A DNA stretch of 20,000 nucleotides, taken from Psammoneis japonica. Taxonomy: Eukaryota. The position numbers and the translations under genes are program-made. Under the pieces are notes generated by a model. It saw nothing but the letters and a program-made list of their open reading frames with translations. It had not been told where the DNA came from and ran no database searches. The stretch lies in NCBI GenBank assembly GCA_008632985.1, contig QPGO01000295.1, forward strand, positions 50,794-70,793. The letters run 5' to 3'. Within the stretch, counting starts at the first letter, position 1. Every line of letters begins with the position of its first letter. Of the stretch, positions 1-20,000 are shown piece by piece.

Positions 1-130
1 CTTCTGTTTTTGTTGGCAATCATTCATGCATTCATTGCTTTGCAATCTTGCTGTGGAGCTTGTGTGCAGAACTCCGAGGGCCCAATGTCACAAACAGCCC
101 CACCCAGCTGCCGGCAGGACTGGAGCCGTC
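1..130 (-). mobile_element. Degenerate terminal fragment of the GAC...GTC MITE family (truncated by window start)
   Basis: 51-130 (ctgtggagcttgtgtgcagaactccgagggcccaatgtcac...cccacccag...ggactggagccgtc) resembles the MITE ends at 5983-6052 and 10471-10541 (ctgcggagctcgcacgcagaactctgcgggcccaatgtcacacggagtcccacccaggactggaacccgtc). Confidence 0.7.
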
Positions 131-540
131 TTGTTGCTCTGTTTTGTGAGTGGGGACTCCTCCTTCCATGTGCCACACAGCACATTCAGTCACAGTGCTC
201 CCAACACACCAGGGGCTATGAACAATTTTACGTAAACACCTTCAACATGCTCAACGGGAAAGCCAACGATTTAGTGAGAAGCCGAGCTCGAGCCGACGAG
301 CAGGCCATCACTTGTCCATGGCCGATCAATCAAGAATGCGGACGGACAGACTGCTCTCTTTTAGCTGGCTAGAGAGCACACAGGTCCTACTTAGCACCAA
401 CCCTATGCCAAACGACGTGAGAGAAGAGGCGGACATTGACAAGGTACTTTTTCGTCATTAGCAGGCTCCAGGAGAGGCAATGAACTGCCAGTTTTCTATG
501 CCTATAGAACTTTAAATGGAACGCGTGGGATGTAGTTTCT

Positions 541-3374
541 TCAAAAGACCACGGTCACGTCAGGTGAACAGGTCGAACCACCCGCATCACACACTGTGTA
601 AACGTAGCTCGCGCCTCCTTTTTGGCCAGTGTTGTCCATGTAAAATCCATCATTTTGGGTGGTTGTGACCAATGCACTATTTCGATAGATTTCAACATTG
701 CTTGTGGTAGCACCAGAGAAAGTTAAGTCACAGACGTTGAATCCTTTTTCCTTGCGGGTCGTGATATTCAGGGTAATTGGGCCTCCTGTAGGTGGGGCGG
801 GGACAACTACCTGGGCAACGTTGGACCATGCAGAATTTCCATCTGTATTGTAGGCTCTCACGCGATAGTCATACGTAGCGGAAGGCAAAACGTCAAAGTC
901 CACCGAAGAAGCGGTCACGGTCGTGGCGCTGGGGACCCAGGTCGTTCCACCATCCTCGCTACGTTCAACTTCAAAACCCAACTCATCTATAGAGTTGTCG
1001 TTCCAGGTGAGCTGCACTTCGGTGCTCTCTGGTGCCACTGCCACCAAGTTGGACGGAGCTGATGGTGGACTGCCACCGCCAGTACTCACGAAAGCCTTGA
1101 TGAAAAGCTGGTCAACGTAGACAGTGTCAAGAGTCCGCTCTCCCTGGACACGATTAGCATCAAGTACTCGCACTCTTACATCGCTGACACCAGACCCCGA
1201 AATAAGTTTCGTGTAGGTGCTTGCGGAATTGCTGTTTACGACAAACAATCTTGAAAAGCTGTTTCCTCCATCCAGGGAGACGTCAAAATTGAAAGCTTCT
1301 TCGCCTTGGTGCCACGCTGTGGCAGTTACGGTGGCATGATCCCATCCGTTTGGAAGGCTGAAATACCATTCATGAGACAATCGGGAAATACGACGACTAG
1401 GATTGCCACTAGATTCTTCTTCACGGATGGATTCAGCATTGCCATCTGCGGCATCAAGGCGCGCGAGAGAACCAGTCACCGTTCCAAAACTGTTGGTCTC
1501 GGTCGAAGGGAACACTTCAACATTATCACTCGTTGTGGCAGACACGGTGGGCGATGGGCTTGTAGAGCTTAGTCCTTTTTGAGCTGTAACGTTGTAGGAG
1601 TACTCCGTTGCCAACTGGAGATCAGTGTCCGTGAACGTCGTTTCAGAGACCTGCCAGCTTCCTCCACTCAACCTCTCAACAACATAGGAGTCCGCTCCAT
1701 CAATTTCCCCCCAATTTAGCCGAATTTCACTTCCAGAAAGGGCCGCTGCCGTCACAGAGCCCATTGCCGGCGCTGTAAGTGTTGCTTGGCCAACGTTTGA
1801 ATATTCAGAGGAACCACCGCCATTGACGGCACGAACACGGTAAGAGTTGGTCGTCCATGGCGCTGTAATGTCGCTGAAAGAGGTGACATCACTTGCAAGA
1901 GACTCGATTTCCTCCCATGGACCCTGACCAATGTATCGCTCCAGCCTGAAGGTCTCTTCATTGGAGGAGTTATCTTGCCAGGAAATTAAAATTTCGTTTG
2001 CGCCGACGGTGGTGGCCTCCAAGTTCGAAGGTGCATTCGGGGCGGGAACAGTCACCGAAGCTCGAAACGCGGCCGTGATGGCCATGGTGTTGCGGATGCT
2101 TTCAGCATTGTTGGCAGTTTCGGTACCAGCTACCGCGCCTTCGTAGGTAAGGTTAGGACTGGAAAACAAATTCTGGCGAGTTGCCCCGGTGCAGCCGTAG
2201 GCCATGATAGTGCGAAAGTAGGGGGGAGGGAGACTGCCATCGTTACATACACGGTAACCGTAGGAATAAGGATATGCGGCACTTCCCCCGTTTTCGATGT
2301 TATGGGTAGAACCTTATTTATAAATGAAGCAATGAAAACGGGATGAGAAAATGGGAGAGAATGAGACAATGGAAAAATAATGAACGTACCTTGATTGTGG
2401 CCGATTTCGTGGGTGAAGGTCAATCCGGAAATGCAACTTGAAAATGTCACGCTGAAGGCATAAGGAGCAAAGTCTGAGCTATCACTCGTCATGACATAAG
2501 CAATTCCACAATAGTTATTGTCTTCCGATATCATGGCGACAAGATCTGCACCATATTGATCCCTAACGGAGTGCACTTCATCCATAAAGCCATCGCCGGG
2601 AGTTCTCAAGCGACTGAGAGTGAGACCCATGTCACCTGTTTCTGTATAGCCGACCTCATACATGTACACAAGATTCAGCTCGAGGTTGATTTGACTGTTG
2701 ATATAGCCTTGGTTTGCAAGTTGGATAGCTTCCACGATCTTAGCTTCAATTCCCGCGATGCCACCATACCTGGTTCGGCTGGCTGGCGTGTATACCACCA
2801 TAATGTCTTGTACTGTGTTCCAGAGTGACTTGCTCCCTCCGTGTGAATCCGAAGTGTCAAGACTGGTCTGCTCGCTGATGGTGTCTCCGTCGGTTGCTCC
2901 ACGGAGGAGCCTGCGAGAAGCGGGCGGGAACAGTTCCTTCGTTGGAGGAAGCTTGTCTTCGTCAATCTGCGCAAAGATTGCCGTTCCACCCTGTTCCGAC
3001 GAAATCTCGAATATCTCAGAGACGCCGTAAACGATGGAACCGGAAATTGCTCCTTTGTGGAAGCTAAAGGAGGCCACACTGTTAGGAAAGCCGACGACCT
3101 GACCCATCCAGGTGTGTTCGCCGCGCTTGCCAATTACGGTGCGGTCCTGGCGAAGAGTCAAGGGGGCACTGCCATCTTCGAAGAGATCAACGAGGATAGT
3201 AGCGGCGTTGAGACTTCCTCGATTCAAGCGAATCTGGTCGACGTGTCCTGGGACGTGATACGGAGAGGCCTTCGAGGGCGCCGGCATTCGGGAGCTGAAG
3301 AGCGGAACGGCGTCCTTATTGTTTGCCGCTGCCGACCCTAGCAACAAGGCAAAGGCAAAGACACGGGGGAGCAT
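541..3374 (-). CDS. Secreted M12B/reprolysin-like (metzincin) zinc metalloprotease with fibronectin type III repeats; exons 3374-2390 and 2312-541, 918 aa
   Basis: Signal peptide MLPRVFAFALLLGSAAA, prodomain with RRLLR, and reprolysin-like core (DIMVVYT, RDQYGADLV, YCGIAY). Splicing 2389-2313 joins the two listed ORFs in frame (985+1772 nt) and restores HEIGHNQGSTH (HExxHxxGxxH) and the Met-turn TIMAY. FN3 repeats follow (APSNL..WQDNS..YRVRAVN..GSSEYS; APSNL..WNDNS..YRVRAYN). Confidence 0.92.
2313..2389 (-). other. 77-bp phase-1 GT-AG spliceosomal intron
   Basis: Minus strand reads CAAG|GTACGT...AAATAAG|GTTCT. It is pyrimidine-rich, and its removal restores the frame and the zinc-binding motif. 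Confidence 0.9.
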
Positions 3375-3800
3375 CGTTTTGCTTGAATAAGATCAAAAGT
3401 TGGATCAAGAAGACACGATGGGAGGAGAAAGGTGATGTTGTTTTTTATGGGCTTCACGCCGTTTCTACCAGGAGAAATCGGATGTAAAAAATGAGGTCAT
3501 TGATGGCTGGCATTTTGTATGTTCTGAGAGACGTAGAATGTACTGTACGTGCAACATGGAACATAGAACTTGGTCATGGTCATAAATGAATGAATATTTC
3601 ATATGAACGGTCATTCCGTTTACAGCATTAGATTTATGCTGCACCGCACCGTCCGCGAATTTTTATAAGTCATGCGTATTCATACAATTACAACGGAAAT
3701 TTTGGCCTGCGTGATTTGTAGTTCGTAACGGTTATCCGTTGAATTTAGTCTTGTTTGGCAAAGAACACCTTTTACGTATGTTTTAAGTCGTTGGGGCTGG

Positions 3801-3922
3801 TGATGACTTATGATGACTCTATGATAACTTATGATTACTTTTGATGACTAATGATTACTTATGATTACTTGTGGTTACTTATGATTCCTTTTGATTACTT
3901 ATGATTACTTATATGATTACTT
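3801..3922. repeat. ~10-bp minisatellite (TGATTACTTA / TGATGACTTA)n, block 1
   Basis: About 12 tandem imperfect units read directly. Confidence 0.9.
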
Positions 3923-4019
3923 TAAAAAGTCGAGTGTGTCTGTCTTGTGCAAAAAATATCATGTTAACGGTCAGATTTAAAGGGCTGTTGTGTCAGTTTG
4001 TCTGTGGACATTTGTCTTT

Positions 4020-4144
4020 ATTACTTACGGTTACTTGTGATTATTTATGATTACTCATGATTAATTATGATGACTTATGATGACTTTTGATTACTTGTGA
4101 TTACTTTTCATCACTCATTATTACTTTTGATTACTTTTGATTAC
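4020..4144. repeat. ~10-bp minisatellite (TGATTACTTW)n, block 2
   Basis: About 12 tandem imperfect units, same consensus as block 1. Confidence 0.88.
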
Positions 4145-4266
4145 AAATGATAAGTTAACGTCTTTCTGCGACCAACTCTCGATTGACATTTAACGATTAA
4201 GGGTGGGAAATCCCTTGTGTTTTTGACATGTGAATGCAAACACATGAAAAATAACTGACGTTTTAA

Positions 4267-4661
4267 GGCGGGTCATCCCCCACTTTTTTTAGCTCGAATT
4301 TGGCCGAACAGCTCGTGATTTGCATGATTTTTCTTGAATTTCACCGCGCTTCACCGTGGTGAAAACATCAAGCCACAAGTCTGTGACGGAGGTGGGCCGT
4401 GCGTCAACTTTCATTTGTTTTGTGCTTGTTGTGTGTCTGGGGTCGCACACACATCAAATGTTTGCGCACGGACCGCTGCATTTTTGGACTTGTGTCGACA
4501 TTGCCGTCATCATCGTGCTTCGATCACAGTGTCTGATGTTCTCATTTTCATGCACGATCGGGGGTGAATGTGGGCAATTTTTGCATTCAAAAACAAACAC
4601 TGCAAATGTCCTCATTCAAATGCCACGACAATTTCTGGGACAAATGCGGGGATGACCCACC
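4267..4661. mobile_element. Kolobok-like MITE copy 1 (~395 bp)
   Basis: TTAA|GGCGGGTCATCCCC ... GGGGATGACCCACC|TTGA. GG..CC termini with a TTAA target fit Kolobok better than piggyBac. No transposase. Confidence 0.8.
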
Positions 4662-4665
4662 TTGA

Positions 4666-5062
4666 GGCGGGTCACCCCCATGTTTGTCCCAGAATTGCCG
4701 TTGTTGCATTTGTGTGAGATTTTTTGCAGTGCTTGTTTTTGAATGCAACAATTGTTCATGGTCACACCTGATCGCGCACGAAAATGAGAACCATCAACAC
4801 CACGATCGAAGCACGACGATGACAACAATCATCGACATTTCTCAAAAACGCAGCGTGCCGTCTGTCAACTTTTCATGCATGCACAATCTTTGATGCACAA
4901 CAAACACAAAACAAATGAGAGTTGGCAGACGGACCACCTCCGTCACAGACTTGTGGCTTGTTGTTTTCACCACAGTGAAGCACGGTGAAATTCAGGAAAA
5001 ATCATGCAAAATGCGAGCTGTTCGACCAAATTCGAGCTAAAAAAAGTGGCGACTGACCCGCC
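4666..5062. mobile_element. Kolobok-like MITE copy 2 (~397 bp), inverted relative to copy 1
   Basis: TTGA|GGCGGGTCACCCCC ... GACTGACCCGCC|TTGA. The body is the reverse complement of 4267-4661 (e.g. agctcgaatttggccgaacagctcg / cgagctgttcgaccaaattcgagct). Confidence 0.8.
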
Positions 5063-5492
5063 TTGATCATTTGTGATGCAAATGTGGAAAAAACACACCG
5101 ACGCGTTCTGCGCTCACCGTGCAAACAGCACGACAATGGACGAAATGCCATTCGTTCTCGAAAACTGACAGGGGTGGCCTCCAACTTTTTTCACAGTGTG
5201 TCGCATTTGACATGGTCAACAAACTCATGAAGAAAGTTGGAGGCCTCCAAACCTGCACTGCGTTCAATGGACGGCATTTCGGCCATTGTCGTGTTGTTTG
5301 CACGGTGAGCTCAGCATTCGCTCTCCAGCCTTTTGAACATTTTTCCACAAATTGCACGCATTTGTGAAAAACACTGTCTTGTTTCAGACATTTTTTGTTT
5401 GAAATTTCTAAAATTCACAAAAAAAGAGGGTTCCCAGCCTCAAAACCATTGGCAATTTGGTGAGCACAGAATGTGTCTTGTCGCTGAAGCAG

Positions 5493-5595
5493 TGCTGACC
5501 TTCACAACATTTCTGTGCATCAGTCCGTTGGGTTCACATGAAAAATGTTAACCTTCATAACATTTTTGTGCATTGGTCCGTTGGGTTCACATGAA
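5493..5595. repeat. 53-bp tandem duplication
   Basis: accttcacaacatttctgtgcatcagtccgttgggttcacatgaa at 5498 versus accttcataacatttttgtgcattggtccgttgggttcacatgaa at 5551. Confidence 0.85.
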
Positions 5596-5656
5596 TGCAT
5601 GGGGAAATAAAAATTCGCTGACGGTGCAGGCATCCATCATTGTGTTCATGATGTTG

Positions 5657-6052
5657 GACGCGTTCCAGCCCCAGGTGGGAGCTCGCAGCACTGACATGTG
5701 ACACAAACAATTTTTGTCATCCGTCGCATGTTTTGCACGTGCATTTCTGCGTGTGATGTTTAAAAAAAATTGTCCAGACTCACTGTTTTGTGAAGCCCCA
5801 GACACTTCACACAACAAATTTGCAGAAACGATGATGCGCCAGTTGCATTCTTCAATGTCTGAAGAGTGCAACTGGCCAAGCAAAAAGCGATGTGCTTCAA
5901 TCATGGGCAAGTTTGTGCATTTGCAAAATTGCCTCATTTTCTGTTGGCGATCATTGGCACTTTAACTGCCATGTGCTTTTGCTGCGGAGCTCGCACGTGG
6001 AATTCTGCGGGCCCAATGTCACACGGATTCCCACCTGGGTCTGGAACACGTC
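5657..6052 (-). mobile_element. GAC...GTC MITE, subfamily with a different internal sequence (396 bp), 4-bp TSD GTTG
   Basis: GTTG|GACGCGTTCCAGCCCCAGGTGGGA ... TCCCACCTGGGTCTGGAACACGTC|GTTG. Confidence 0.88.
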
Positions 6053-6425
6053 GTTGTGCCAGCAGGGTCCTGTTGTTTTTATGGGCTTGAGGCCGGTGTT
6101 GTGCTGAGAGACGTGGATTCTGTCTGCAGCACTGGCACAGAGCATGATCAAGGTCAATGATGAATGGACATTTCTTGGCAGTCACGGTCTTCAATGAATG
6201 GACATTTCCTGTGAACGATCATTCTGCAAGGTCAAACAAGACAAAGACTTTAGAGTTGGCAAAAATTGTGAGCGAAAGACCAAGGCAACCAGGTTGCTGT
6301 CAGCGAAGCCCGCTGCAATGGCTCTTGTCATGTCTCACAGAATCATCAATGCTTTTCTGCGCAAGCACACATTGGCAGTTTTTGTGAGGAATTCCACGGG
6401 TTTTTTGCACCAAGCAGCCATCACC

Positions 6426-8420
6426 ATGACGACCCCTCCTCCACCGCAGGCTGGCCCCGCCGGTGCTCCTCTTCCGGATCTTCCTCCCATTGTGGATCGC
6501 ACTCCATCAACCCCAACAAGAGCTGGCTCAAAAAAGCTCAACGTGATTGGCCCAAAAGAAATTGCCACCCGATTTGAGTTGACATTGGCAGAGGACAATG
6601 CCCCTGCAGTCCCAGCTGAGGGTCACACCAACACCCTCCATGCCCTTCAGCAAAAGGTGTCCCAAGATCCGTTGATGCACAAAATCTCCATCATGTCGAA
6701 TCGTGGTGTTGATGTCCCCAATGTCAACATCATTGAATGGAGTTCTGGACTGACGCACTTGCAACATTTTGTTTTACACCAAGTCGGAGGCACCCGCCGC
6801 CGCCCTCCTGCGTGCATCATCACTCACTGCATCTGCACTGCCTTGGCTCTTGCCAAAATCAGGAACACACCCTTTGCACACAAAGTCCTTAAAGACAATG
6901 GCTTTCACATGAAATGTCATGAATGTGACAAGGACGCGTTCCAGCCCTAGGTGGGACTCCGTGTGACATTGGGCCCCGTAGAATTCTACGTGCGAGCTCC
7001 GTAGTACGAGAATTTAATTAATGGACACATTTATCTTCAACATCAAATAAACGGCCAAGTTTGTGGTACAATTATGCCTCTTACCACTCGACGTTTTTGC
7101 AACTTCGCCTGCCCTACGCGATTCTTAAGACATTGTAGAATCGCGCTGTAACAAAAAATGTCAAAAGTTGTTGGACGGATCGCTCAATAAGTGTACCGTA
7201 AAATGACACAAAATATCGAAAAAATCACGTAGAAATCTACGTGCGCGACATACGACGAGACTCAAAAAACTATCGATGTCACAGTTCAGTAGTACGAGGT
7301 CCCACCTAGACCTGGAATCTTGTGCTGCTCTTCTCCTGGATTTTGTGCCTGAGCACTGCCCTGCGGACATTGTTCAGAAATGACTTGTGTCAATTCCACC
7401 CCCCTGCAGTTGCTCCAAGGTTCCTTTCCGGTTGATTGTTCAATCGGCATCTTCCCCAATTGACAAGGACATCAAATCGACTCATTGTGCCATTGAGACC
7501 CCACGAGACTGCGCCAAGGACATGATTGCAGCCCTGATGGAAGCATTGGAGGATCGTCCATTGGCGGCAATTTTCACCTGCTGGCAGCACACTCAACCAG
7601 AACAATTCGACAAAGCAGCGCGCAAGCAACGAAAAACCTCCGCAAAAATTCACGTGATCCCATTGCTTCGCTGCAAGGACAGGATGCATTTTTGTGTGTC
7701 CAGTGCAACTTCCATGATTCCAGGGGCAGTGGACGTTGTCCCCTCAAAGAAGAAAATCTCAGTCCCACGTTGCAACATTCTCGTGGACAAACAGTGCTTT
7801 CGAAAAGTCAAAGAGCACATTGCAGAAAACCTCTCAGGCTGGACGAACCATCTTCCAGAAAACGAATTGCCGTTCATTCACCAACCTCGCCCAACAAATC
7901 CTGGTGTCAACAACGATGTCTCGGACACTGTTCAGTCAATTGCCTTGGCTGGCATCCAAAGCTGGAAGTCTCTGGGACATTTCTGACATTTCTCCTTCTG
8001 ACTCACAAGCTCCTGCTGAATCCGCAACACAGCCAGCACCTCCACTGGTTCCGCGAAATGTTGGGATTGTTGGCGGCTTTCAGATGTTTGCACAAGCCCT
8101 GGAAAGTTCCACCAGTGTGGCAGTCCCCACAGCAACCCCCACTTTGGAGTTGACATCTCATGCCAACAAAACAGCTGAGCTTGAACAGATGGTGCTTCAA
8201 CATCATCAGGAGCAGGATCATTGGTCAGAGCTGCTAGAATGACAACATCAAGCATCTCTTGTGCAGCTGGCTTCCAAGTTTCAAGATTTGATTCAGGAAA
8301 CCATTTCACCCATGATGACTCCGGGAGCTTCATCTCCTCAGAGGAAGAAACCTGCACTCTCAGCCCCAGCAGGCTCTTCATCTCACCATCCTCCCAACGA
8401 CACTGCCGCGGATGACGTGG
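6426..8420 (+). pseudogene. Putative LINE ORF1 remnant (Pro-rich N-terminus), split by the MITE at 6933-7317
   Basis: Long + strand frames MTTPPPPQAG... (6426-6932) and 7387-7986 lie directly upstream of the endonuclease domain. The identity is inferred from position only. Confidence 0.55.
6933..7317 (+). mobile_element. GAC...GTC MITE, TpA-retaining copy; last ~6 bp of the right TIR and the TSD are missing
   Basis: GACGCGTTCCAGCCCTAGGTGGGAC ... GTCCCACCTAGACCTGGAA; colinear with 13990-14380. Confidence 0.9.
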
Positions 8421-10149
8421 ATCAAGAAGACTCAGTTTTTCCTGAGGCAGGGCCAGTCATCCAACCTGCCCATTTCCCAAGATGCATGCACCTGTCGTGC
8501 TGTTCAGTCTTTCTTCGAGAAAGCACGGCATCACACCCAGGGGTGATGCCCCTTTGGTGGCAGTTGGTCCCGCTGCCCAGCAGTTGACCCAGATGTTGTC
8601 AGGCAGAAGTTTTGCACCTCCCTCCAGCACTGTTGATCACACTGCTCTGGCACAGAATGACCTGATTGGTGATCCGCTGGGACCCAAATCACCAGACCAA
8701 ACATGTTTGCACGCGTTTGATGCAAATGGATGTGCTTGTGACCTGCAAGGCAGAGACTTCAACACCTGTTCTCAAGTCACTGCGGAAACACAGGCAGACA
8801 CAGTTGGAATTTCCGAAACTTGTTTGGGCACAATGCAATGCAAAGTTCGACAGAGTTGCACAAACACAGTTTGCCAATCTTTCCAACACGGCCATCTGAC
8901 ATTGTCATCCTCCAAGACTGCCTTTTCCATCCCTTGCAAACCTGGTGGCACCGCCTTGCTTTCATGCAATTCTTTGTCTTCACAATGCCATGCACAATGT
9001 GAAGATCTTCTCGGGAGATGGTCGATCCAAATTTTTGATGGACGCCATGGACGGCAAGTTGTGTTTGTGTCGTGTCATCAAGTGTGCTTTGGCTCTTCTG
9101 TTGCAGGTGAAACAACAGCTTGCGCAAAACAGGAAGCATTGCTTTGACGACAAGGACGCGCAAATCCCGACACAAGATGATCATTTTGCACGGATCTGAC
9201 CCGCATCCTAGAGCGGTTTCTCGATGATCCAGACCAAGAGGTTGCGCTGTTTGGAGATTTTGGCACTGACAATGACACCCTTGCTTCCATGGCGCAACGG
9301 TTCAACATGTCGGACGTGATGTGTTGCCATCAGGAAGATCTTGAATTTTCCATGCATGTGAGAGGATCTTGTCAGCTGGGCTGCATTCCAGCAACTCCAG
9401 GAGCTTTGGCTGCATCAAGAAGGTGTGGGTGCAAATCATTTGGTTGTCACACATCCTTGGATCATTGAGCTCATTTTGTCAGCTTTGACACTGTGGCATT
9501 GTTTGGCAACCCTGCCGTCAACTTGCCTCGTGCCGAACATCGAGGCTTGCAAGCAAATTCTCCGAAACACGCAACTGCACATTTGGAGACAATGGCTCCC
9601 CTCCTGCAAAGTTGCAGTGTCAAGGAGCAAACCAAAGCACTGGCACAGTCTGAGACGCCAAATCACAGACTCACAGAGAGACTCAGCCGCAACAGTCTGC
9701 AGCTCTCATTGTCTTCTGCGAAGCATTGTTGACGTCACAACAAACCAGAATGGTCAGCAAAATTGGCCAGTCTCTGCAGACAGATTTTGGTGTTGTCCAG
9801 GATGATGTCCATGTTTTGCGCCAAGGTTGACATGGCACCAATGATTCCATGTGCTGAGTTTGATCTCAAAGAGTCCTTTGTTCTTCCAACCACCTTACAA
9901 GAATGTGCCACAGCTCTACAAAAGGCTCAGTCAGAGTGCCGTCAGGTGGCAAGAGAGAGTCAGAAACACCAAGATGAAGAATGAGACGCCCGCATCGCCA
10001 AACTTGAATTAGACTGCACCAAACAGTCAAAAGCCAAAGCACAAATCCTGCGCAATCAACGCTGTGCAGAAGAAACTGAGCGGGCATTTAAGAAAACCAA
10101 CGCTTGCAAAAAGACGGAAGGAGCCAGTGCACAAACCATTCAAATCCCT

Positions 10150-10541
10150 GACGCGTTCCAGCTCTGGGTGGGACCTTGCACCACTGAACTGTGACATTGA
10201 CAGTTTTTTTGGATCGCGCCGCATGTCGCGCACGTAGAATTGCACAAGACTTTTGTGAAATTTTGTGTCATTTTGTGGTGCACTTGTTGAGCGATCCGTC
10301 CAACAACTTTTGACATTTTTTTGTTACAGCGCGATTCTGCAATGTCTTAAGAATTGCGCAGGGCAGGCACATTTGCAAAAATGTCAAGTGGCAAGAGGCA
10401 CAATTGCACCACAAACTTGGCCGTTTGTTTGATGTTGAAGATGAACACATCCGTTGATTAAATTCTTGCACTGCGGAGCTCGCACGCAGAACTCTGCGGG
10501 CCCAATGTCACACGGAGTCCCACCCAGGACTGGAACCCGTC
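10150..10541 (-). mobile_element. GAC...GTC MITE (392 bp), 4-bp TSD CCCT, reverse orientation
   Basis: CCCT|GACGCGTTCCAG ... CTGGAACCCGTC|CCCT. Excision restores the LINE frame IQIPEDPRDNPKTCENW. Confidence 0.92.
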
Positions 10542-13173
10542 CCCTGAAGACCCCCGAGACAATCCCAAAACGTGCGAGAATTGGGTGACGACAGATGCCC
10601 CAGACAACATTGAATCTGCGCTCCAGCACTGCAAAAAAACCAACGACACTTCGGACAGGCACATGGCACTCCTCTCACTGTCCCACCCTTGTCTGTTGAC
10701 CTTGGATGTGAAGGAGACACTGTCATGGCCGATTTAATCCTAGACGGAGAACATGAAACTGGACACCTGAACCGTGCCACTTTGCTGCTGACACAGCATC
10801 TTCGAAGAAGGACACCACCAACAGCTCCAAATTCTCTCACTCCTGGGGCTCTCCACTTGAAGACAAAAATGTGGTCAGAGTCAACGTCTGCTTCATTGAA
10901 GTCAGGGATTCATCTGGGACACTGGAAGGCCCTGTGCGCTCCACATTCCCATGCAAATGATTGTGACAATGACGGGAATCCATCCGAGCAGAAAGAATTG
11001 TTGGACTCGGTCCAGCAATCCCTTGTGGCAATGCAACTTAACCTGATCAACTGCGCTTTAAAGCAGGGTTGCTCACGCAAATGATGGAAAGACATTGTGA
11101 ATGCAACGATCTTCAAAGAACCAGGCAACAACAAAATGCACCGATTGTGCATGATTCACATCTGCGAGGCGGATTTCCAACTGATTGCAAGTGTCAAGTG
11201 GCGCAAATTAGCCCAGCATGTGGATCACCGCTGAATGTGCAACCCAGGGATTTGCAGATGTTGCTCCTTCCTTTCCGCCCAAACGCCTGTTTTTCTCAAA
11301 AACTTGATGCTGGAGATGTCACGTGCTTCCCGGAACACTTTGCTCACCAGTGACGATGACTGCACTTCTTGCTGTGACAGGAACATCCCAGCAACAGTGG
11401 GTTTGCGTGCAAAGAGTGATGGCATGCACAAGAGAGTGGTCAAAGTCAATGTGGCAATGTCACATCATGCATGTCATTGGCTGTGCACTCTGTCAGGAAT
11501 CACCCAAAAAAGTTGTTCCCATTCCTCTGAGTTCCCGTTGCATGGAAAAGGACAAGGCAGCGGAAATTCTCCTTGGTGCTGGAACACTCTGCGCAGTGGA
11601 CTGTTTGACATCTTTGATGCTGAAGCTGTTGGTTTGTTCTTCAAAACTCTGGACGGACAGTTCCACATCCAAGCATGCAACAGGGGTCATGTTGATGACA
11701 CTTCCAAGCAGGTGAATGATTTCAGAGCCAGCCCTCAGCCCTCCACGCTCAAGTTGTCCCAGTCTCTCCAATCGGACAGCCGGTTGTGGTGTGACTTGTT
11801 GGACACAGCAGGACATGAACTTGAGTTGCTGAAGTGTTCCTTCCATGCCACAGAATGGGACTTTACAGAGTGCGGAGAACCGCACATGTGACCCTGCCAT
11901 GACAACATTGAGGTGGAGATCTTTTCCACTGTCCAAACCACTTCCAGGTGCAGCCAGCAATTGTCAGCACACACACCTCACAAAACCCTGGGACACTGCA
12001 TGACTCCAATCGGTGCACAGAAAACTCAATCGAAGAAACCCCAACACAAGAGCAATGCTGTCTCCTTGTTTCTCAGGTTGTGCCCGCTGGACAGGACAGA
12101 AACATGGCAACAATGCCGCGCTTGTCACCTCTCCTTGATGACACGTGTTCTGGCTGGCTCAAATTTTCTTCCAAAAGAGCTCCAACAGGTGCAACAAAAG
12201 GCCATGCCGACGATTTTTGCCAAATGTGGTTACAACAGAAACACCAAAAGGCTCGTTCTCTACAGACCACAGTCGCTGGGAGGCGGAGGTTTTCGATTGC
12301 TTGATGTTGAACAAGGAGTGGCCCAACTTCAACAACTGTTGAAGCACTCAAGAGGAGTTGCCCACCTGCAACTCTCGCCACAGGCAGTGACGGGTCAGTT
12401 GGGGAGGGAGCCACCTTCGGATGGACGATTGCCTCAGATGGTGCGCCATCAGTGAATTGTGCAGGACCCGTTTTTGGAAAGACGCCATCTTTGCATCGCG
12501 CAGAGGCCTGTGGCATCCTTTCAATTGCACGGTTCATTTTTTGATTGTGTGAATGTTGTTGGATTTTGGTTCCTTTGGACGCTGCAATTCATTGTGACAA
12601 CAAGGCTTTGGTTGACGGTCTTTCCCGGTTGACATCTGCCCCACCAGCGATTGACCCAGACGAAGAAGCTCACGCTCCACACAATTTTCATGTTCGCTGC
12701 AACGGCGCTGATGCCATTTCTCCAGATTGGGACGTTCTGAACAAAATTCTTCACACCCAGCAAACTCTGAAGCAGCTTTTGGATTCAGAGGATCTGTTCT
12801 CCCTCCAGTCTCATGGGTGAAAGGACATCAAGGCAGGCATTCTCCAGTCCATGCCTTGCCCACAAACGCCAGAGTCAACATCCGCGCTGACAGATTGGCA
12901 GGAGCATGTCAGGGTCACTGCCTGTGTGACAAGTCAAGCATCTGCCTCATTGCAACTCTCACCTCAAAACAGAGGGAGGCACCGCAACATCGAGCCACAA
13001 GAAACAGATCAGACATGCAGCCACCGCCCCCCAACTGATCGACTGCATCATTGAACGCAGCCAGTGGACCCCTCCAGTGATGGAGCAAGTCAATTGGAAT
13101 GCCCGTGCAATCCTGGTGAAGTGCCATTCAAAGAAGCATGTCAACGCGGCAAAACTGGTGCATGACTTGCCAC

Positions 13174-13771
13174 CACCCACGAACAAAATTGCTCGCAGAT
13201 GCGATCAAGTTCGTCCTCACCAGTGCATTGCGTGCGATCATCTGATGGAAGACAGGGACCACATTCTTTGATGTCCCAACGACAAACAGTGGAGGAGGAA
13301 ATTCTTGCAAGGTCTGCACAGATGCTGCAACAAGGCAGACACAATGCCTGTTCTTTGTGACTTTTCATTGGATGTGCTGCAGGCTTGGTTTGATGAGGAA
13401 ATCACTCACCTCAAAAATGGGGGTTGCAGATGCAAGGAGTTGTGGAGAGCTCAGCCAGACATTGGATGGCAACACCCACGAACAAAATTGCTCACAGATG
13501 CAATCAAGTTCATCCTCACCAGTGCATTGCGTGCGATCATCTGATGGAAGACAGGGACCACATTCTTTGATGTCCCAGTGACAAACAGCGGAGGAGGAAA
13601 TTCTTGCAAGGTCTGCACAGATGCTGCAACAAGGCAGACACAGTGCCTGTTCTTTGTGACTTTTCATTGGATGTGCTGCAGGCTTGGTTTGATGAGGAAA
13701 TCACTCACCTCAAAAACAGGGGTTGCAGATGCAAGGAGTTGTGGAGAGCTCAACCAGACATTGGATGGCAA
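13174..13771 (+). repeat. 299-bp tandem duplication inside LINE ORF2 (13174-13472 / 13473-13771)
   Basis: Near-identical copies both start cacccacgaacaaaattgctc; the duplication is frameshifting. Confidence 0.93.
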
Positions 13772-13989
13772 CAGATCTTCAACGGCAGATGCTCGCTTGT
13801 GTGGAACCTCCTGCAATCTGGTCATCTTCATGATTCAGGCATTTTGCGTCAATGTCAAGAGGAAAACAAACAGCCACCAGATTGGACGGTCCAGCTGGGA
13901 TCCTGCACATGGAGAAGCTGGTGGGAGCTGTGGGAAGAGCATGGCAAGCCAGCTCACGGACACAATGTTGAGTCTTGAAAGTCATCCCA

Positions 13990-14380
13990 GACGCGCTCCA
14001 GCCCTGGGCGGGACTCCGTGCGACATTGGGCCCGCAGAATTCTGCGTGCGAGCTCCGCAGTGCGAGAATTTTAATTGATGGACACATTTGTCTTCAACAT
14101 CAAACAAACGGCCAAGTTTGTGGTGCAATTGTGCCTCTCACCAATTGACGTTTTTGCAACTTCGCCTGCCCTGCGCGGTTCTTAAGACATTGCAGAATCG
14201 CGCTGCAACAAAAAATGTCAAAAGTTGTTGGACGGATCGCTCAACAAGTGCACCGTAAAATGACACAAAATGTCAAAAAAATCATGCAGAAATCTGTGTG
14301 TGCGACATGCGACGAGACTCAAAAAACTGTCGATGTCACAGCTCAGCAGTGCGAGGTCCCACCTGGACCTGGAGCACGTC
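13990..14380 (+). mobile_element. GAC...GTC MITE (391 bp), 4-bp TSD CCCA
   Basis: CCCA|GACGCGCTCCAGCCCTGGGCGGGAC ... GTCCCACCTGGACCTGGAGCACGTC|CCCA. Confidence 0.92.
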
Positions 14381-14656
14381 CCCAAAAGACAGGGGAGTGT
14401 TGCTAGATTCAGTCGAGAAACGCCGTTCATTTTCTGCAACAAGGGCTCAAAACTGGATCTCAGCGGTCCTCCCAAGACTCAAAAAAAGCTTGAAAGAAGC
14501 CAAACGCCTGGCCAAAAGAGGTGCCTGCGCCATCTTCAGCCATTTCCGTCAGGCGCCCCCCTTCCGGGGGCGCCAAATCCAGCCAATCACACACAATTTC
14601 TGCCGCATCCTTTGCAGGGTATGCTGGAAGTGTGGGTCAGCCGGCGCTGGTGTTGC

Positions 14657-14727
14657 TTGGGGCCAGGGCCAGGGTCAGGGTTGGGGTTGGGGCTGGGGTT
14701 GGGGTCAAGGTTTGGGGTTGGGGTTAG
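14657..14727 (+). repeat. Degenerate interstitial telomeric repeat (~11 hexamers)
   Basis: ttgggg ccaggg ccaggg tcaggg ttgggg ttgggg ctgggg ttgggg tcaagg tttgggg ttgggg ttag; these are transition variants of TTAGGG in the same orientation as the terminal array. Confidence 0.8.
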
Positions 14728-15412
14728 CATGTGCGTTTTTTTGGCTCGGTTTTGGGTTGGGGCAAGAGTCTGTGCATCGTCCGTCAATGTTTTCAACTGC
14801 AAAATGGCGACGCACGACGCACAGACTGCCCATTTGGGGCCTTTGCTGGACCCATTTCGGTTGCCAGGTGATGAACAGACTGCGCCAATTTGGGGCCAAT
14901 GCTGGACCCATTTCGACCTGCAACTGGAGTTGCCAATGACCCCTGGGATTGGACACTGGTTTGCTGTCCACAACTGCAGTGTCATTTTGACAAGTCAGCC
15001 AAAACACCAGGCGCACAAACACAGACGAATTTCAACACATGCAGCGATTGTGGTTTTGCACAATTGATGTTTCAGCCTGTCTTTCTCTTGCTCTGATTTC
15101 TCGCAGAGGAACAGGGCGTGGCGGCAACAACCCTCCTCATGTGTGGTGCATTTGGGATGGGAGGGTTTGGGTTTGGGTTGTGAGGTGGCAGGAAACGCTT
15201 CCGGTTGAATGACAGACCCCACCTGATCGATGCCAAGTGGCCACGGTTGAAGGACAGACCATGCCAAATCGACACGCACCCGCATCTATTTCTCATCTCC
15301 ACAGTCGAACTCAGGACAAGTCATTGCACACATCGAATCAGTCAAGCATCGTTTTCACATGTTGTGGCCAACAGCGTGACTGCAAGCAACACCTGAAACA
15401 AGCAACTGAGTG

Positions 15413-18400
15413 CTAAAATTGCCACAAACCCAAAAACAAAAAGTGGACAATGAATGTTGCGGGATTCACAGCAATGCAGCAATTTTGAGACTGTGATGCT
15501 CCCCGCACACATTTTTGTGGTTGATGCATGTGCCCAACTGCCCAAACTTCATTTTTTTTGTTTTTTGTTCCGCGGGCAGTTGCACGTTTTTTTTTCTTTG
15601 ACAAATTCGTTTGGATGGGTGGGGGTTGTTCTACCGTCATTCTTCCTGTCGGTGGTGTGTCCTTCTTTGGCTTGCTGGCGTTCTTCATTTTTTCCATTTC
15701 CTTTCTCTTTGCCTCCATTGCCGTCGCTCTTGCAGCCGCCTTCCCCCCCCTTTTCTTGTCTGCCTCAATTCTCTTCCTCCTTGCCTGTTCCTTTCTTTCC
15801 TCCATTTCGGCCAGCGCCTTCGCCCTGCGTTTCTTTGCGTCTGTTTTTGTCTCACGATCCGGAGTTCTCCGAAAAACTCTTTTGCTCCCACACTTGTTTG
15901 GTCGTTCAGACACTTTTGACGGGGTTTTCATCTTGGCTGAAACTTTGGCAGCAGCCACAGCACTTGAAGGGTCGTCATCATCTGCTGCGTCAATCTCCGA
16001 TTCAGAGGATGATTCAGAGGATGAGGAGACCAGATCCCTTCTCCGCTGTCTTTTCCTTGCAGCGGAACGTGGCTCTTGGTTGATTCGATTCAGGACGGGG
16101 CAACTGCTGTCGCTGTCACTCCCGCTTGCAAGGGGCTCGTCTTTCGAATCTGCGTCACTCCCAGCAAAATCCATGTTTTGTTCGTCCTCTTCCACCTGTT
16201 GCTCAGGGTTTGCAGCAGACGGTTCCTCTTCATCTGCTTTGTCATTTCCTTGCCCCCCCCTGTTGATGGTCATTCTCCTCTGACATTCCGTCTCTGTCAG
16301 AAGTCGCTTTGTCATCTGGCGACTGGCCGGTGCCTCCATTGCCCCCCTCATCTGAACGATCTTTCCTTTCTTCTTCATCTTGAGGGTTTGTGCCATCTCC
16401 GTCTTTGTCTGGGGTGTGATCTCCATCTTTGTCATTGTCATCATTGTCGTTGTTGTCGCTTGATTCCTCCTCATCCTTCTGCTCTGGTGCCTCCTCCTCC
16501 TTCTCCTCTTCCTCATCCGCTTCCTTGTCATGTTCCACTGTGGGCTTGCCGGCTGCATCATCGCCCACTTGTTGTGTGCTCCCATCTTGGTGCCGCAGGT
16601 CTGCCAAGGTGGTGTCCATCATCCCTTCGTCGTCGTCTCCCCCTTGTTGTCCCTCCGCTGTGACCTCTGCTCGCGCCGCTTCGTCCTTCTTTGCCTGCTT
16701 TTTTTTCTTTTTCGCCTTCCTTTTCTTGCTCTCTTCCTTCATTCTGTCTTCCAAAATCGTCTTTCTCATTTTGTCCTCGTTCTCCAGTCTTTCCTTCTTG
16801 AATCCATTGCGCATTGTGTTGTCGTGCGCCCATGGCATTGCCTTCTGCTTGCGCCACTTCGTCCTTCTTTGCCTGCTTCATTTTCTTTTTCGCCCTCCTT
16901 TTCTCGCTCTCTTCCTTCATTCTGTCTTCCAAAATCGTCTTTCTCATTTTGTCCTCGTTCTCCAGTCTTTCCTTCTTGAATCCATTGCGCATTGTGTTGT
17001 CACACGCCCATGGCATTGCCTTGCTGAAGTTCTTGTGAATCAAGTCGCACTCGTGCTCAAATCGTTTCTTTGTCTCTGTGTCTTCATCAAAAAGAGCTTG
17101 GAAATTCCGGCAGTTGACAACCCTTGGAGATGTGCCACGCGTTTGGTTCATCGCGTCTTCGTAGTTTTTGCAGGTGACTGAGAATGTCTGCTCCGATTCC
17201 TGCTCTTCAGGTGCAAAAGTGTCCTCCTCGTCTTCGCTGTTCAATCCTCTGAAGTGAATCTGTTCCTTCACATCCTTCACTGTCAGATCAGAGTTGCTTT
17301 GCAGGTGGCAGATGGCTGTTCCAAGAGCCGCCTGTGTTTGACAGGTCCTAACGCACTCTTGTTGCAACTTCATGAAAGCCTCCTGTCGGCTGTCATCTGT
17401 GTCCAGGGTGTTGTCCAATGTGCCGCTGATGGACTTGCACATCTCGGAATTCTTGTTCCACTTCATTCTCTTGCGTTTTCTTTTCGCGGCAGGTTTTGCA
17501 GCAGCTTCTTCGTCGGGCTCGTCCTCATCGTCCCATTTCCTTTTCTTGCTCTGTTTCGATTTCCCCACCACCTCAATGAGTCTCTTGTTTGGTTCTTCCA
17601 ACCATTTCTTCAGCCTTTGGTGGTTGAGCTCGACTCCGTCTGAAACTGCCACATCGTGCACATCGCTCATGCCTGCCATGCAAATCTCCTCAATCAATTC
17701 CTTCAAGGTTAACTTGGCATGCTTTTCATTTCCTGCATGGAAACAATCACCAAACAGGTTAGACGGGGACCGCAAAACAGACACATTGGTGTTCCGATCC
17801 TGCAAACAATCCGATGCACAGACAGACAACACCAAATTGGTGCAATGGCGTGTCGATTCCGCAGAATCGAAGCCGATGAGGACAGACCGTGCGACACAGA
17901 GATGACGTGGCATCGATTTCTTGGTCACACTCACCGCTGCCTTCTCGACTGGATCGATTTCAAATTTGGGAACAAAGTCTTCGGTGGAGGCTGTTTTCTG
18001 GTTTGCCTCGTTGGCCACAATGTTCCCTGGCTCTTCCAGGTGTTCGATCAGAGAGAGCAGTTTGAGGCTCTTCTTCTTTGTCAACCATTCGCAAATGAAC
18101 GCAACCATCTGCGGCATGTTTGTGACTTTCTCTGGACAGTTTGTGTCATCGCGAAACATCAATTCATGAAAGGGCTCCTCGCTCAATGCCTCCTGTTCAT
18201 CATTGTCGAGACCAGACGTTTCTTCCGGAAGCATTGCCTCGAAAAGAAACGTTTTGTGATTTTCTACACCAGCATCCAACCAACATTTGTTGACGGGGAT
18301 CACATCTCCGAAGTGACAAAATGCCTCCATTGTTGCCTTTCCGGCACCGGCCAGCATCTTTGGATGCAGGTTTTTGTCAGTCCACCTCCCTTTTCCGCAC

Positions 18401-19013
18401 TGCACCATTTTTGTCATCGTCAAACCAAGGATGACCTGTGTTTTGATGCAAACATCAAAGACACACAGTGCAGCTTTGGGCAAACCGCTCTTGGAAACAT
18501 CGGTTTCGTTGAGATTTGCAAAAAATTCCCTTCAAAAAGAAAAGAAAAAAATTTGGTCATCAGGCACACGACCAAACAATTCGCGGTTTTCACTTGTCAT
18601 GTGTTTCCGTTGCTCCAACACTCACCGAGTGCAATTTGCCCCTTTTCGTTCCCTGCAATGTTGCGGGAAAGGAGTGATTGAGCAAATGTCAAGCACCGTT
18701 TCTCGAGAATGAAATCATGGTGGGATCCCAAAGCAAGGAATTGTCTTGCCGTGTGTCCATCATTGTCAGCGGTTTCCGCCTTCAGGAACTCTGTTGACAG
18801 GCCCATCACCTCTCCCTGCACGTTTTCAGCCAAATTGTTCAGCACTGTGCAGTCGCGAAGGACTTTTCCATCTTCTCCTTCTCCAAATTCTGTCGCAAAC
18901 GAAAATCGCAATCCCTCCGGTGGGGTGGGTTCAGATTGGCAGGATCTTCCAATGACTTGTTTCAACATTTCAGCGGACTGGCTGTCAAAAACAAAATTCG
19001 TGAACAACATCAT
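15413..19013 (-). pseudogene. Large decayed ORF of unknown function (globular N-terminal part, K/E-rich coiled-coil-like and D/E/S-rich disordered C-terminal part); 5' end runs into the gap
   Basis: Overlapping minus-strand frames 19013-18597, 18483-16558, 16838-16242 and ~16240-15413 have protein-like composition. They are frameshifted (one break from the 178-bp duplication) and almost free of Tyr. Confidence 0.6.
16666..17021. repeat. 178-bp tandem duplication (16666-16843 / 16844-17021)
   Basis: The peptide NTMRNGFKKERLENEDKMRKTILEDRMKEES appears in two different frames. Confidence 0.93.
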
Positions 19014-19458
19014 NNNNNNNNNNNNNNNNNNNNNNNNNNNNNNNNNNNNNNNNNNNNNNNNNNNNNNNNNNNNNNNNNNNNNNNNNNNNNNNNNNNNNNN
19101 NNNNNNNNNNNNNNNNNNNNNNNNNNNNNNNNNNNNNNNNNNNNNNNNNNNNNNNNNNNNNNNNNNNNNNNNNNNNNNNNNNNNNNNNNNNNNNNNNNNN
19201 NNNNNNNNNNNNNNNNNNNNNNNNNNNNNNNNNNNNNNNNNNNNNNNNNNNNNNNNNNNNNNNNNNNNNNNNNNNNNNNNNNNNNNNNNNNNNNNNNNNN
19301 NNNNNNNNNNNNNNNNNNNNNNNNNNNNNNNNNNNNNNNNNNNNNNNNNNNNNNNNNNNNNNNNNNNNNNNNNNNNNNNNNNNNNNNNNNNNNNNNNNNN
19401 NNNNNNNNNNNNNNNNNNNNNNNNNNNNNNNNNNNNNNNNNNNNNNNNNNNNNNNNNN
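19014..19458. other. Assembly gap (445 N)
   Basis: Run of N. Confidence 1.
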
Positions 19459-19669
19459 GGGGGGTTAGGGTTAGGGGTTAGGGTTAGGGTTAGGGTAGGG
19501 TTAGGTTAGGGTTAGGGTAGGGTTAGGGTTAGGGTTAGGGTTAGGGTTAGGGTTAGGGTTAGGTTAGGGTTAGGGTTAGGTTAGGGTTAGGGTTAGGGTT
19601 AGGGTTAGGGTTAGGGTTAGGGTTAGGGTTAGGGTTAGGGTAGGGTTAGGGTTAGGGTTAGGGTTAGGG

Positions 19670-19710
<41 letters not shown>

Positions 19711-19840
19711 GGTTAGGGTTAGGGTTAGGGTTAGGGTTAGGGTTAGGGGTTAGGGTTAGGGTTAGGTTAGGGTTAGGGTTAGGGTTAGGTTAGGGTTAGG
19801 GTTAGGTTGGTTAGGGTTAGGGGGTTAGGGTTAGGGTGGG

Positions 19841-19874
<34 letters not shown>

Positions 19875-19959
19875 GGTTAGGTTAGGGTTAGGGTTAGGGT
19901 TAGGGTTAGGGTTAGGGTTAGGGTTAGGGTTAGGGTTAGGGTTAGGGTTAGGGTTAGGG

Positions 19960-20000
<41 letters not shown>
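19459..20000 (+). repeat. Telomeric array (TTAGGG)n
   Basis: About 540 bp of tandem TTAGGG with occasional 1-nt indels; G-rich strand runs toward the window end. Confidence 0.98.

Follow-up and report, generated by a model that had tools for sequence, protein, structure and literature searches.

The 20,000-nucleotide stretch analyzed here (the window; contig QPGO01000295.1, positions 50,794 to 70,793) contains, at 4291–19013, a block of about 15 kb from which the dinucleotide TpA (TA) has been almost completely erased. The block bears the traces of a DNA-level process that acted on both strands, changed A:T into G:C pairs with a T-A-Y bias (Y, pyrimidine), was confined to a domain and proceeded close to saturation. 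A real mutation process converting TA into TG or CA in DNA almost certainly made the block. The locus adds a non-viral and more extreme example to a process known from a single preprint, in which de novo TpA to TpG/CpA hypermutation was described, in the text available, for mutation-accumulation lines of the alga Bigelowiella natans (Mettrop et al., bioRxiv 2026, 10.64898/2026.01.13.699255). As the block is followed by an N gap and then by a terminal TTAGGG array, the window represents a chromosome end of a eukaryote.

For the TA counts, positions 1–3790 were used as the control region and the depleted block was defined as 4291–19013 without the TA-rich transposon copy M1 embedded in it. The block contained 43 TA in 14,338 bp, with 910 predicted from base composition, whereas 143 TA were found in the 3,790 bp of the control (Fisher p = 1.5e-60). 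The control density would give about 541 TA in the block, which corresponds to a loss of 92%. Expressed as frequency, TpA constituted 0.30% of the depleted block and 3.8% of the control. The observed/expected ratio (O/E) of TA calculated per kb was 0.00–0.13 in 13 of the 14 intervals (5001–18001) and 0.47–0.74 on the gene side (1–4000). The lone exception among the 14, the interval 7001–8000 with a TA O/E of 0.34, was caused by M1, which lies there. The left edge of the block was sharp, with TA at 4252, 4264 and 4290 and the next one only at 5038. The depleted intervals showed TG O/E of 1.24–1.84 and CA O/E of 1.27–1.77. No strand asymmetry of TG versus CA was detected along the block, as an apparent CA excess at 15–19 kb vanished given the T-rich composition. 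These counts agree with the preliminary description of this DNA, made from its letters, which had reported about 15 kb almost free of TA beside an ordinary gene region. An equal TA depletion in genes, regarded there as an argument to the contrary, was not observed.

The TA-free domain also had a lower CpG O/E (0.33–0.86) than the gene side (0.73–1.19), which suggests that cytosines of this domain are methylated. The TA-free sequence was present in contigs from one public run (X1, depth about 45), for example in one of 418 nt with 1 difference. The preliminary description had considered that raw reads might not support the substitutions; contigs built from the reads of this run reproduce them. 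X1 is the only public run containing the stretch and may be the assembly's own source sample, and no public RNA run containing the stretch is listed. The depth of X1 contigs was taken as a rough copy number, with single-copy pieces at about 45.

The direction of the change was read from repeats within the block, among them two families of miniature inverted-repeat transposable elements (MITEs):

6933–7317, plus strand: MITE copy M1, young and unmutated, with 27 TA (repeat alignment, depth).
10150–10542, minus strand: MITE copy M3, with 22 of 27 TA sites mutated (repeat alignment).
13990–14380, plus strand: MITE copy M2, with 24 of 27 TA sites mutated (repeat alignment).
4267–5062, no strand assigned: TTAA-target MITE in two head-to-head copies, 4267–4661 and 4666–5062 (inverted repeats, ends, flanks).

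Relative to M1, the altered sites of M2 comprised 14 TG and 10 CA with 0 transversions, and the count given in the preliminary description proved exact on realignment. The altered sites of M3 were 12 TG and 10 CA, with one additional TT. Altogether, 46 of the 47 changes at TA sites of M1 were A>G or T>C and a single one was a transversion. Every TA of M2 or M3 was matched by a TA in M1, with no reverse cases. At 6 sites M2 and M3 disagreed as TG versus CA, and by single steps a TA ancestor is the only explanation of such discordance. CpG transitions separating M2 and M3 from M1 numbered 5 and 10, respectively. The read depth of the M1–M3 family was about 57,000, compared with about 45 for single-copy sequence. 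Of 681 places at which X1 contigs differed, 40 were listed; the G>A and C>T differences among these within the block numbered 24, with 11 restoring TA and 6 located at CpG. At positions 7026 and 7028, where M1 has C, most of the family depth reads T, which would restore TA; many copies of the M1 family are therefore unmutated. An element at 5657–6057 shared the terminal inverted repeats of the M1–M3 family, had an unrelated interior and was TA-poor (2 TA).

The tetramers flanking the TTAA-target MITE copies were TTAA (4263–4266), TTGA (4662) and TTGA (5063), and the TA-free domain starts within the first copy, at about 4291. The two copies differed by 7 TG-versus-CA discordant dinucleotides, compared with 0–2 for each of six control pairs. 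The read depth of this family was 3,000–6,900. The preliminary description had listed mutated TTAA target sites at 4662, 5063 and 5440 as independent anchors for the direction of change. The two TTGA sites indeed flank TTAA-type MITE copies, but no terminal repeat matches the TCAA at 5440, which is unconfirmed as a mutated target site.

A second source of evidence was a probable retrotransposon of the class without long terminal repeats (non-LTR), resembling long interspersed nuclear elements (LINEs):

8635–13972, plus strand: degenerate, probable non-LTR (LINE-like) retrotransposon, TA O/E 0.04 (tblastn of the relatives P0133–P0135, E down to 7e-93).

The element is about 5.3 kb long, is interrupted by M3 and has a 299-bp tandem duplication near its end (13168–13765). 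Collinear plus-strand matches of its relatives encompassed 8635–10149, 10629–12344 and 12808–13972. Only 13 TA were counted in its 4,945 bp, and the read depth of the region 7658–13585 was 90–320. Among the 56 codons aligned to Tyr of the relatives, 18 encoded Cys in the window (TGC 14, TGT 4), 9 encoded His (CAT 7, CAC 2) and 2 retained Tyr. Other residues were kept more often, namely Phe in 18/49, His in 29/75 and Trp in 17/26 positions (Tyr kept versus Phe kept, p = 1.2e-5). The base preceding the Tyr codons gave no signal as a predictor of Cys versus His. All of the 59 related LINE loci from metagenomes had a TA O/E of 0.47–0.92, as opposed to 0.04 in the window copy, and the LINE family is therefore not natively TA-poor.

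The 218-aa open reading frame (ORF) at 11235–11891 of the element matched three long relatives (E 6e-36 to 7e-29). Motifs resembling those of reverse transcriptase (RT) were visible in the alignment of the LINE to its relatives, with HVDD at 11688 and FVDD in the relatives. The preliminary description had expected Y-x-DD at this place and had used HVDD as a further anchor; HVDD is present as claimed, but the relatives carry FVDD and not YVDD, so the anchor is weaker. P0135 has an Exo_endo_phos domain and P0133 a weak zf-RVT match (E 0.00088, 20.3 bits, under the 27.5 cut-off). The Pfam RT model matched neither the six frames of the window nor the LINE relatives, and a PDB sequence search with the RT-like piece gave no match. 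Likewise, no Pfam family was found in six frames of 4200–19013 and in its sub-pieces at E ≤ 10, the AbiJ_NTD3 match at E = 0.1 being noise. The LINE family is common in metagenome contigs (the 59 loci), where its long ORFs have no Pfam reverse-transcriptase match despite RT-like motifs. As judged from these sequences, it may be a poorly modelled clade.

Telomeric and subtelomeric sequences occupy the right part of the window, and a satellite is located to the left of the block:

3790–4176, no strand assigned: 10-bp satellite in two blocks, 3790–3922 and 4020–4144, with 33 TA in both blocks (repeat analysis).
14574–19013, no strand assigned: TA-free subtelomeric repeat, depth 940–2,970 versus about 45, consistent with about 20–65 copies.
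14657–14725, plus strand: interstitial telomere-like array of about 12 units reading TTGGGG, TCAGGG, CCAGGG or CTGGGG.
19459–20000, plus strand: terminal telomere of TTAGGG repeats with TA kept, behind the N gap 19014–19458.

The telomere-like hexamers TTGGGG and TCAGGG mentioned in the preliminary description were found in the interstitial array, in which 0 units are intact TTAGGG; the terminal telomere, which telomerase renews, reads TTAGGG. Many units of the terminal telomere are imperfect, with G or T missing or extra, and the array stands behind 445 N, which suggests poor sequence quality at this end of the assembly.

The course of the change from TA to TG/CA was thus borne out independently by MITE paralogs, LINE proteins, LINE DNA and telomere repeats. 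The possibility that the family consensus already carried CA or TG at these sites, raised in the preliminary description, does not hold, TA being ancestral according to the paralogs, the proteins, the LINE loci and the telomere repeats. Its statement that both strands of genomic DNA were affected, in DNA MITEs, a LINE and telomere-like repeats alike, was also confirmed.

The sequence context of the changes was analyzed with A taken as the target. In the MITE, the per-copy A>G rates were 0.65 for TAC, 0.62 for TAT, 0.23 for TAG and 0.15 for TAA, and the per-site rates at TpA were about 5 to 20 times those of other A/T contexts. Outside TpA, the MITE showed 13 A>G events, 12 of them with a 3' pyrimidine. 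Where TAC was present on one strand only, that strand was mutated in 18 of 21 events (p = 0.0015), and in M2 alone in 10 of 11 (p = 0.012). The A with a 3' G neighbour was the one changed in 6 events and the one left in 19. A comparison of trinucleotide O/E between block and control revealed an excess of TGC (1.82 vs. 1.04) and TGT (1.65 vs. 1.14), a smaller one of TGA (1.44 vs. 1.20) and none of TGG (1.37 vs. 1.34). The 43 surviving TA included 13 TTAA, 4 CTAG, 0 ATAT and 0 GTAC, and were mostly located in contexts poor on both strands. TTAA accounted for only 4 of 143 TA in the control (p = 1.3e-6). At the Tyr codons of the LINE, the outcomes were TGC:CAC = 14:2 and TGT:CAT = 4:7 (p = 0.011). 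The extended motif is T-A-Y, with C > T >> G, A at the 3' position, and TTAA and CTAG survive.

Adenine deamination in DNA by an enzyme of the TadA/ADAT2 type is the explanation we favor, and we consider it somewhat more probable than not. The chromosome-end domain of about 15 kb would be silenced mobile DNA, consisting of two MITE families, the LINE, degenerate telomere repeats and the subtelomeric repeat. A deaminase would convert the A of 5'-TpA-3' to hypoxanthine on either strand, which would be copied as G to yield TG or CA. The T at −1 and the pyrimidine at +1 would mirror U33-A34-C35 of the tRNA anticodon loop. Such an enzyme would be recruited to the silent chromatin domain in bursts and not by sequence homology. 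The elements would be disabled by missense changes, e.g., Tyr to Cys or His, with long open frames remaining. Since editing at TpA erases TAA and TAG and makes no new in-frame stop, dead elements stay open-reading, which explains the many long ORFs in the window and the unannotated 'genes' in the clusters of the preprint. The intact state of M1 and of the edge satellite means that homology alone is not the trigger, and unmutated M1 inside the block means that the process was inactive here after M1 arrived. Given also that the main target in the preprint is a single-copy viral insert, the targeting seems to go by domain or by episode and not by homology. The broader reading, in which a natural, chromatin-domain-targeted DNA adenine deaminase with TadA-like T-A-Y preference serves as a general defence erasing TpA from any silenced DNA, transposons and chromosome ends as well as integrated viruses, in bursts that saturate a domain within about 1e5 generations, is offered tentatively, as a possibility we hold slightly less probable than not.

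The preference of deaminases of this type provides a point of comparison. According to two reports, UACG is the context required by wild-type TadA and UA the one favoured by TadA-8e (PMC12296453), while ABE3.1 prefers YAC and ABE8e-YA prefers YAY over YAR (PMC12528748). TadA, ADAT2-ADAT3 and the derived base editors thus resemble the process described here in the A>I(G) change, in T/U at −1 and in a pyrimidine, especially C, at +1. The difference is that the natural enzymes edit one tRNA position and that DNA editing is known mainly from engineered variants. Amphioxus and trypanosome reports of DNA editing of the TadA/ADAT type are cited in the available text of the preprint (10.64898/2026.01.13.699255).

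Several observations weigh against deamination by such an enzyme or limit its weight. No deaminase gene is encoded in the window as judged by Pfam and the translations, in accordance with the preliminary description, which had found no responsible enzyme there. Known TadA/ADAT enzymes work on single-stranded loops, whereas both strands of a whole domain would have to serve as substrate here. The motif was derived from one window, i.e., from 46 MITE events, 27 Tyr codons and a k-mer contrast against a 3.8-kb control. Strand symmetry of the data makes A>G on one strand equivalent to T>C on the other, and thymine chemistry at GTA/ATA fits as well. Of the 21 sites shared by M2 and M3, 15 changed in the same direction in both (p = 0.08); some shared history is therefore possible and the two copies are not fully independent. 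Ordinary CpG decay accounts for part of the TG/CA excess, given that CpG is reduced in the domain as well. Finally, intact M1 and the TA-rich edge satellite indicate that the targeting was not of everything near the telomere at all times.

One alternative is thymine-directed chemistry. A dioxygenase of the TET/JBP type would oxidise T at TpA in silent chromatin to 5-hydroxymethyluracil or 5-formyluracil, and the oxidised thymine would mispair with G or be repaired with error, giving T>C in the context R-T-A. All context counts fit T>C at G/A-T-A equally; moreover, 5-formyluracil mispairs with G, and 5-hydroxymethyluracil of dinoflagellates is enriched at TpA. We know of no thymine oxidase with such a trinucleotide preference, T-A-Y matches the documented preference of the TadA family instead, and the single transversion among 47 changes at TA sites fits direct miscoding better than excision repair. 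We regard thymine oxidation, and error at the oxidised base, as unlikely. A similarly low but slightly smaller chance is given to targeting triggered by homology, in which duplicated DNA would be recognised and then mutated at TpA, as in repeat-induced point mutation (RIP). Judged by depth, no part of the block has fewer than about 2 copies, and large parts have tens of copies up to over 1,000. However, M1, a member of the most abundant family (about 57,000), retains 27 TA inside the block, many copies of the family are unmutated (T at 7026 and 7028 in most of the depth), the tandem satellite at 3790–4176 is untouched, and the main target in the preprint, as far as its available text goes, is a single-copy viral insert. 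The 'repeat-targeted' defence proposed in the preliminary description thus stands as regards the direction and the breadth of targets, but finds no support as regards a RIP-like repeat trigger, given M1 intact at a depth of about 57,000.

Editing by ADAR would act on RNA. ADAR enzymes prefer a G as the 3' neighbour, and here 3' G was disfavoured (6 chosen, 19 passed over), with no TGG excess over the control. Double-stranded RNA of the elements would be edited and the changes fixed via reverse transcription or RNA-templated repair; repeats do make double-stranded RNA, and U is favoured 5' of the edited A according to the Discussion of the preprint. Against this, MITEs, telomere-like repeats and intergenic DNA were hit as one contiguous block, and in-place mutation of a transcriptionally silent insert is described in the preprint text available, which makes ADAR very improbable. 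An artefact of sequencing, base calling or assembly, e.g., G or C called in place of a modified base, might be suspected from the low-quality assembly end with its N gap and imperfect telomere units, and from the sole public run, which may be the assembly's sample. Contigs of X1 reads at a depth of about 45 are nevertheless TA-free, M1 and the telomere keep TA in the same stretch, Tyr was lost with open frames kept, which is coherent biology, and the preprint, in its available part, called identical changes de novo from Illumina data. The artefact is accordingly given hardly any credence. The least probable explanation, which we consider next to negligible, is foreign DNA natively poor in TA, or selection against TA. 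Most genomes have slightly fewer TA than expected, and so does the control (O/E 0.47–0.74); however, this explanation is contradicted by the paralogs, the LINE proteins of the outgroup and the 59 related loci of normal TA content, all of which show that the loss is derived, and selection would not affect MITEs, dead LINEs and telomere-like repeats in the same way.

The preliminary description had known of no described system of this kind, and in this respect it has been superseded, as the preprint of Mettrop et al. reports the same signature. A literature search covering few subscription journals returned no other report of TpA-specific hypermutation. In the available text of 10.64898/2026.01.13.699255, 231 of 302 nuclear point mutations of B. 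natans were located in two integrated viral regions; 230 of these 231 changed A to G or T to C, in each case on TpA, and the mutations were confined to 11 of the 15 lines. In the same text, 124 TpA-depleted clusters were detected genome-wide, and RT, endonuclease-RT and DDE domains were enriched in TpA-poor gene models. The phenomenon was likened to RIP, and an ADAT2-like adenine deaminase was proposed from sequence and model similarity only. By analogy, the process acting on the window is probably the same as the hypermutation of viral inserts in B. natans. In both cases the changes are exclusively A>G or T>C, hit TpA on either strand and leave contiguous blocks poor in TpA and rich in CpA and TpG; RT and endonuclease domains are among the TpA-depleted sequences of the preprint. 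The TpA frequencies are comparable, 0.30% (depleted) and 3.8% (control) here versus 0.18% (low-TpA coding sequences) and 4.1% (all coding sequences) in the accessible part of the preprint. With our own O/E in place of its exact formula, six consecutive intervals (8001–13001) passed both cut-offs of the preprint; for TpA alone, all 14 intervals from 5001 were within the cut-off, and about 9 of them passed both.

Differences from the B. natans case, as far as the text of the preprint was available, concern extent and targets. The emphasis of the preprint is on viral inserts, which keep many TpA (Rho 0.45), whereas the subtelomeric block described here is close to saturation (O/E about 0.05) and, as far as identifiable, non-viral (MITEs, LINE and telomere-like repeats). 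Its targets are mobile DNA, i.e., two MITE families and a LINE, and no viral gene was recognised by Pfam in six frames. No mention of trinucleotide context, flanks, neighbours, a logo, telomeres or MITEs was found in the main text of the preprint, in the form available. The canonical telomere of the window and its similar TpA frequencies are compatible with an origin from B. natans, which is said to have canonical telomeres (excerpt of PMC13746701), but both are weak signs. The figures in the available preprint text (211 mutations, 6,169 TpA and 3,132 generations) correspond to a rate of about 1.1e-5 per TpA per generation, at which, we infer, the 92% loss of TA would need only about 2.3e5 generations.

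Other mutational systems share some features with the process described here. Fungal RIP is likewise a dinucleotide-specific transition hypermutation of mobile DNA that leaves a dinucleotide skew. It differs in that C>T at CpA makes TpA and stops and is triggered by duplication before meiosis, whereas here TpA was lost and not gained, no in-frame stops were created, and not all duplicated copies were mutated, M1, a copy of a family of more than 1,000 members, being spared. Decay of 5-methylcytosine produces a TG/CA excess and apparently also acts in the block, but it cannot remove TpA. Neither fungal RIP, which runs in the opposite direction, nor 5-methylcytosine decay explains the loss, as the preliminary description had correctly argued. 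AID/APOBEC enzymes also represent deaminase-driven, context-specific hypermutation against mobile DNA; they deaminate cytosine (C>T / G>A) and lower GC, whereas GC was raised here at A:T pairs. ADAR shares clustered A>G changes in repeats and a 5' U preference, but acts on RNA, whereas genomic DNA is affected here.

The subtelomeric repeat (14574–19013) contains a 641-aa ORF on the minus strand (16558–18483), the chance of such a length being about 2e-4. Its tail is rich in lysine and glutamate. A word-indexed search with this ORF returned nothing, an exhaustive HMMER search gave 2 weak relatives (E about 1e-6) and no Pfam family, and scores in a protein atlas were 0.77 or less and uninformative. 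A 178-bp tandem duplication (16661–17016, 94% identity) shifts the frame between this ORF and the one at 15413–16585. In the 299-bp duplication of the LINE (13168–13765, 96% identity) and in the 178-bp duplication, transitions constituted 10/12 and 9/11 of the differences, respectively, and about half of them were at CpG. As the duplication copies differ by CpG transitions, CpG decay continued after TA had been exhausted.

On the other side of the block, a single gene was found in the left 3.4 kb of the window, with ordinary TA O/E (0.47–0.74):

541–3374, minus strand: gene of a secreted reprolysin-type metalloprotease with fn3 domains (Pfam Reprolysin_3/5/4 and fn3).

The start of the product is signal-peptide-like and the fn3 domains are C-terminal, as identified by Pfam and translation. 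The reading frame switches right after the zinc motif HEIGHNQG, which looks like a single short intron as judged from the translation. Relatives of the fn3 half share 25–49% identity and many of them are on metagenome contigs; six relatives combine reprolysin and fn3. With many relatives on metagenome contigs, the gene may be of bacterial origin. The 10-bp satellite sits between this gene and the TA-free domain, outside the depletion, and is TA-rich; a few of its units carry TA>TG-like variants and the remainder keeps TA. It could mark a chromatin boundary.

Targeted A:T to G:C hypermutation is a mirror image of RIP and of APOBEC-type defences and has so far been described in a single preprint. 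The locus presented here widens its targets to ordinary transposons and subtelomeric repeats and shows the process near completion. As TpA-free DNA keeps long open frames, gene finders will call false genes in it. The T-A-Y fingerprint, in which TTAA and CTAG resist change, reduces the field of candidate enzymes to TadA/ADAT-like deaminases and makes a prediction for the published mutation-accumulation data. An enzyme of this kind, if found, would be a natural DNA adenine editor. If the reading is true and the window does not come from B. natans, the pathway would also exist in a second lineage.

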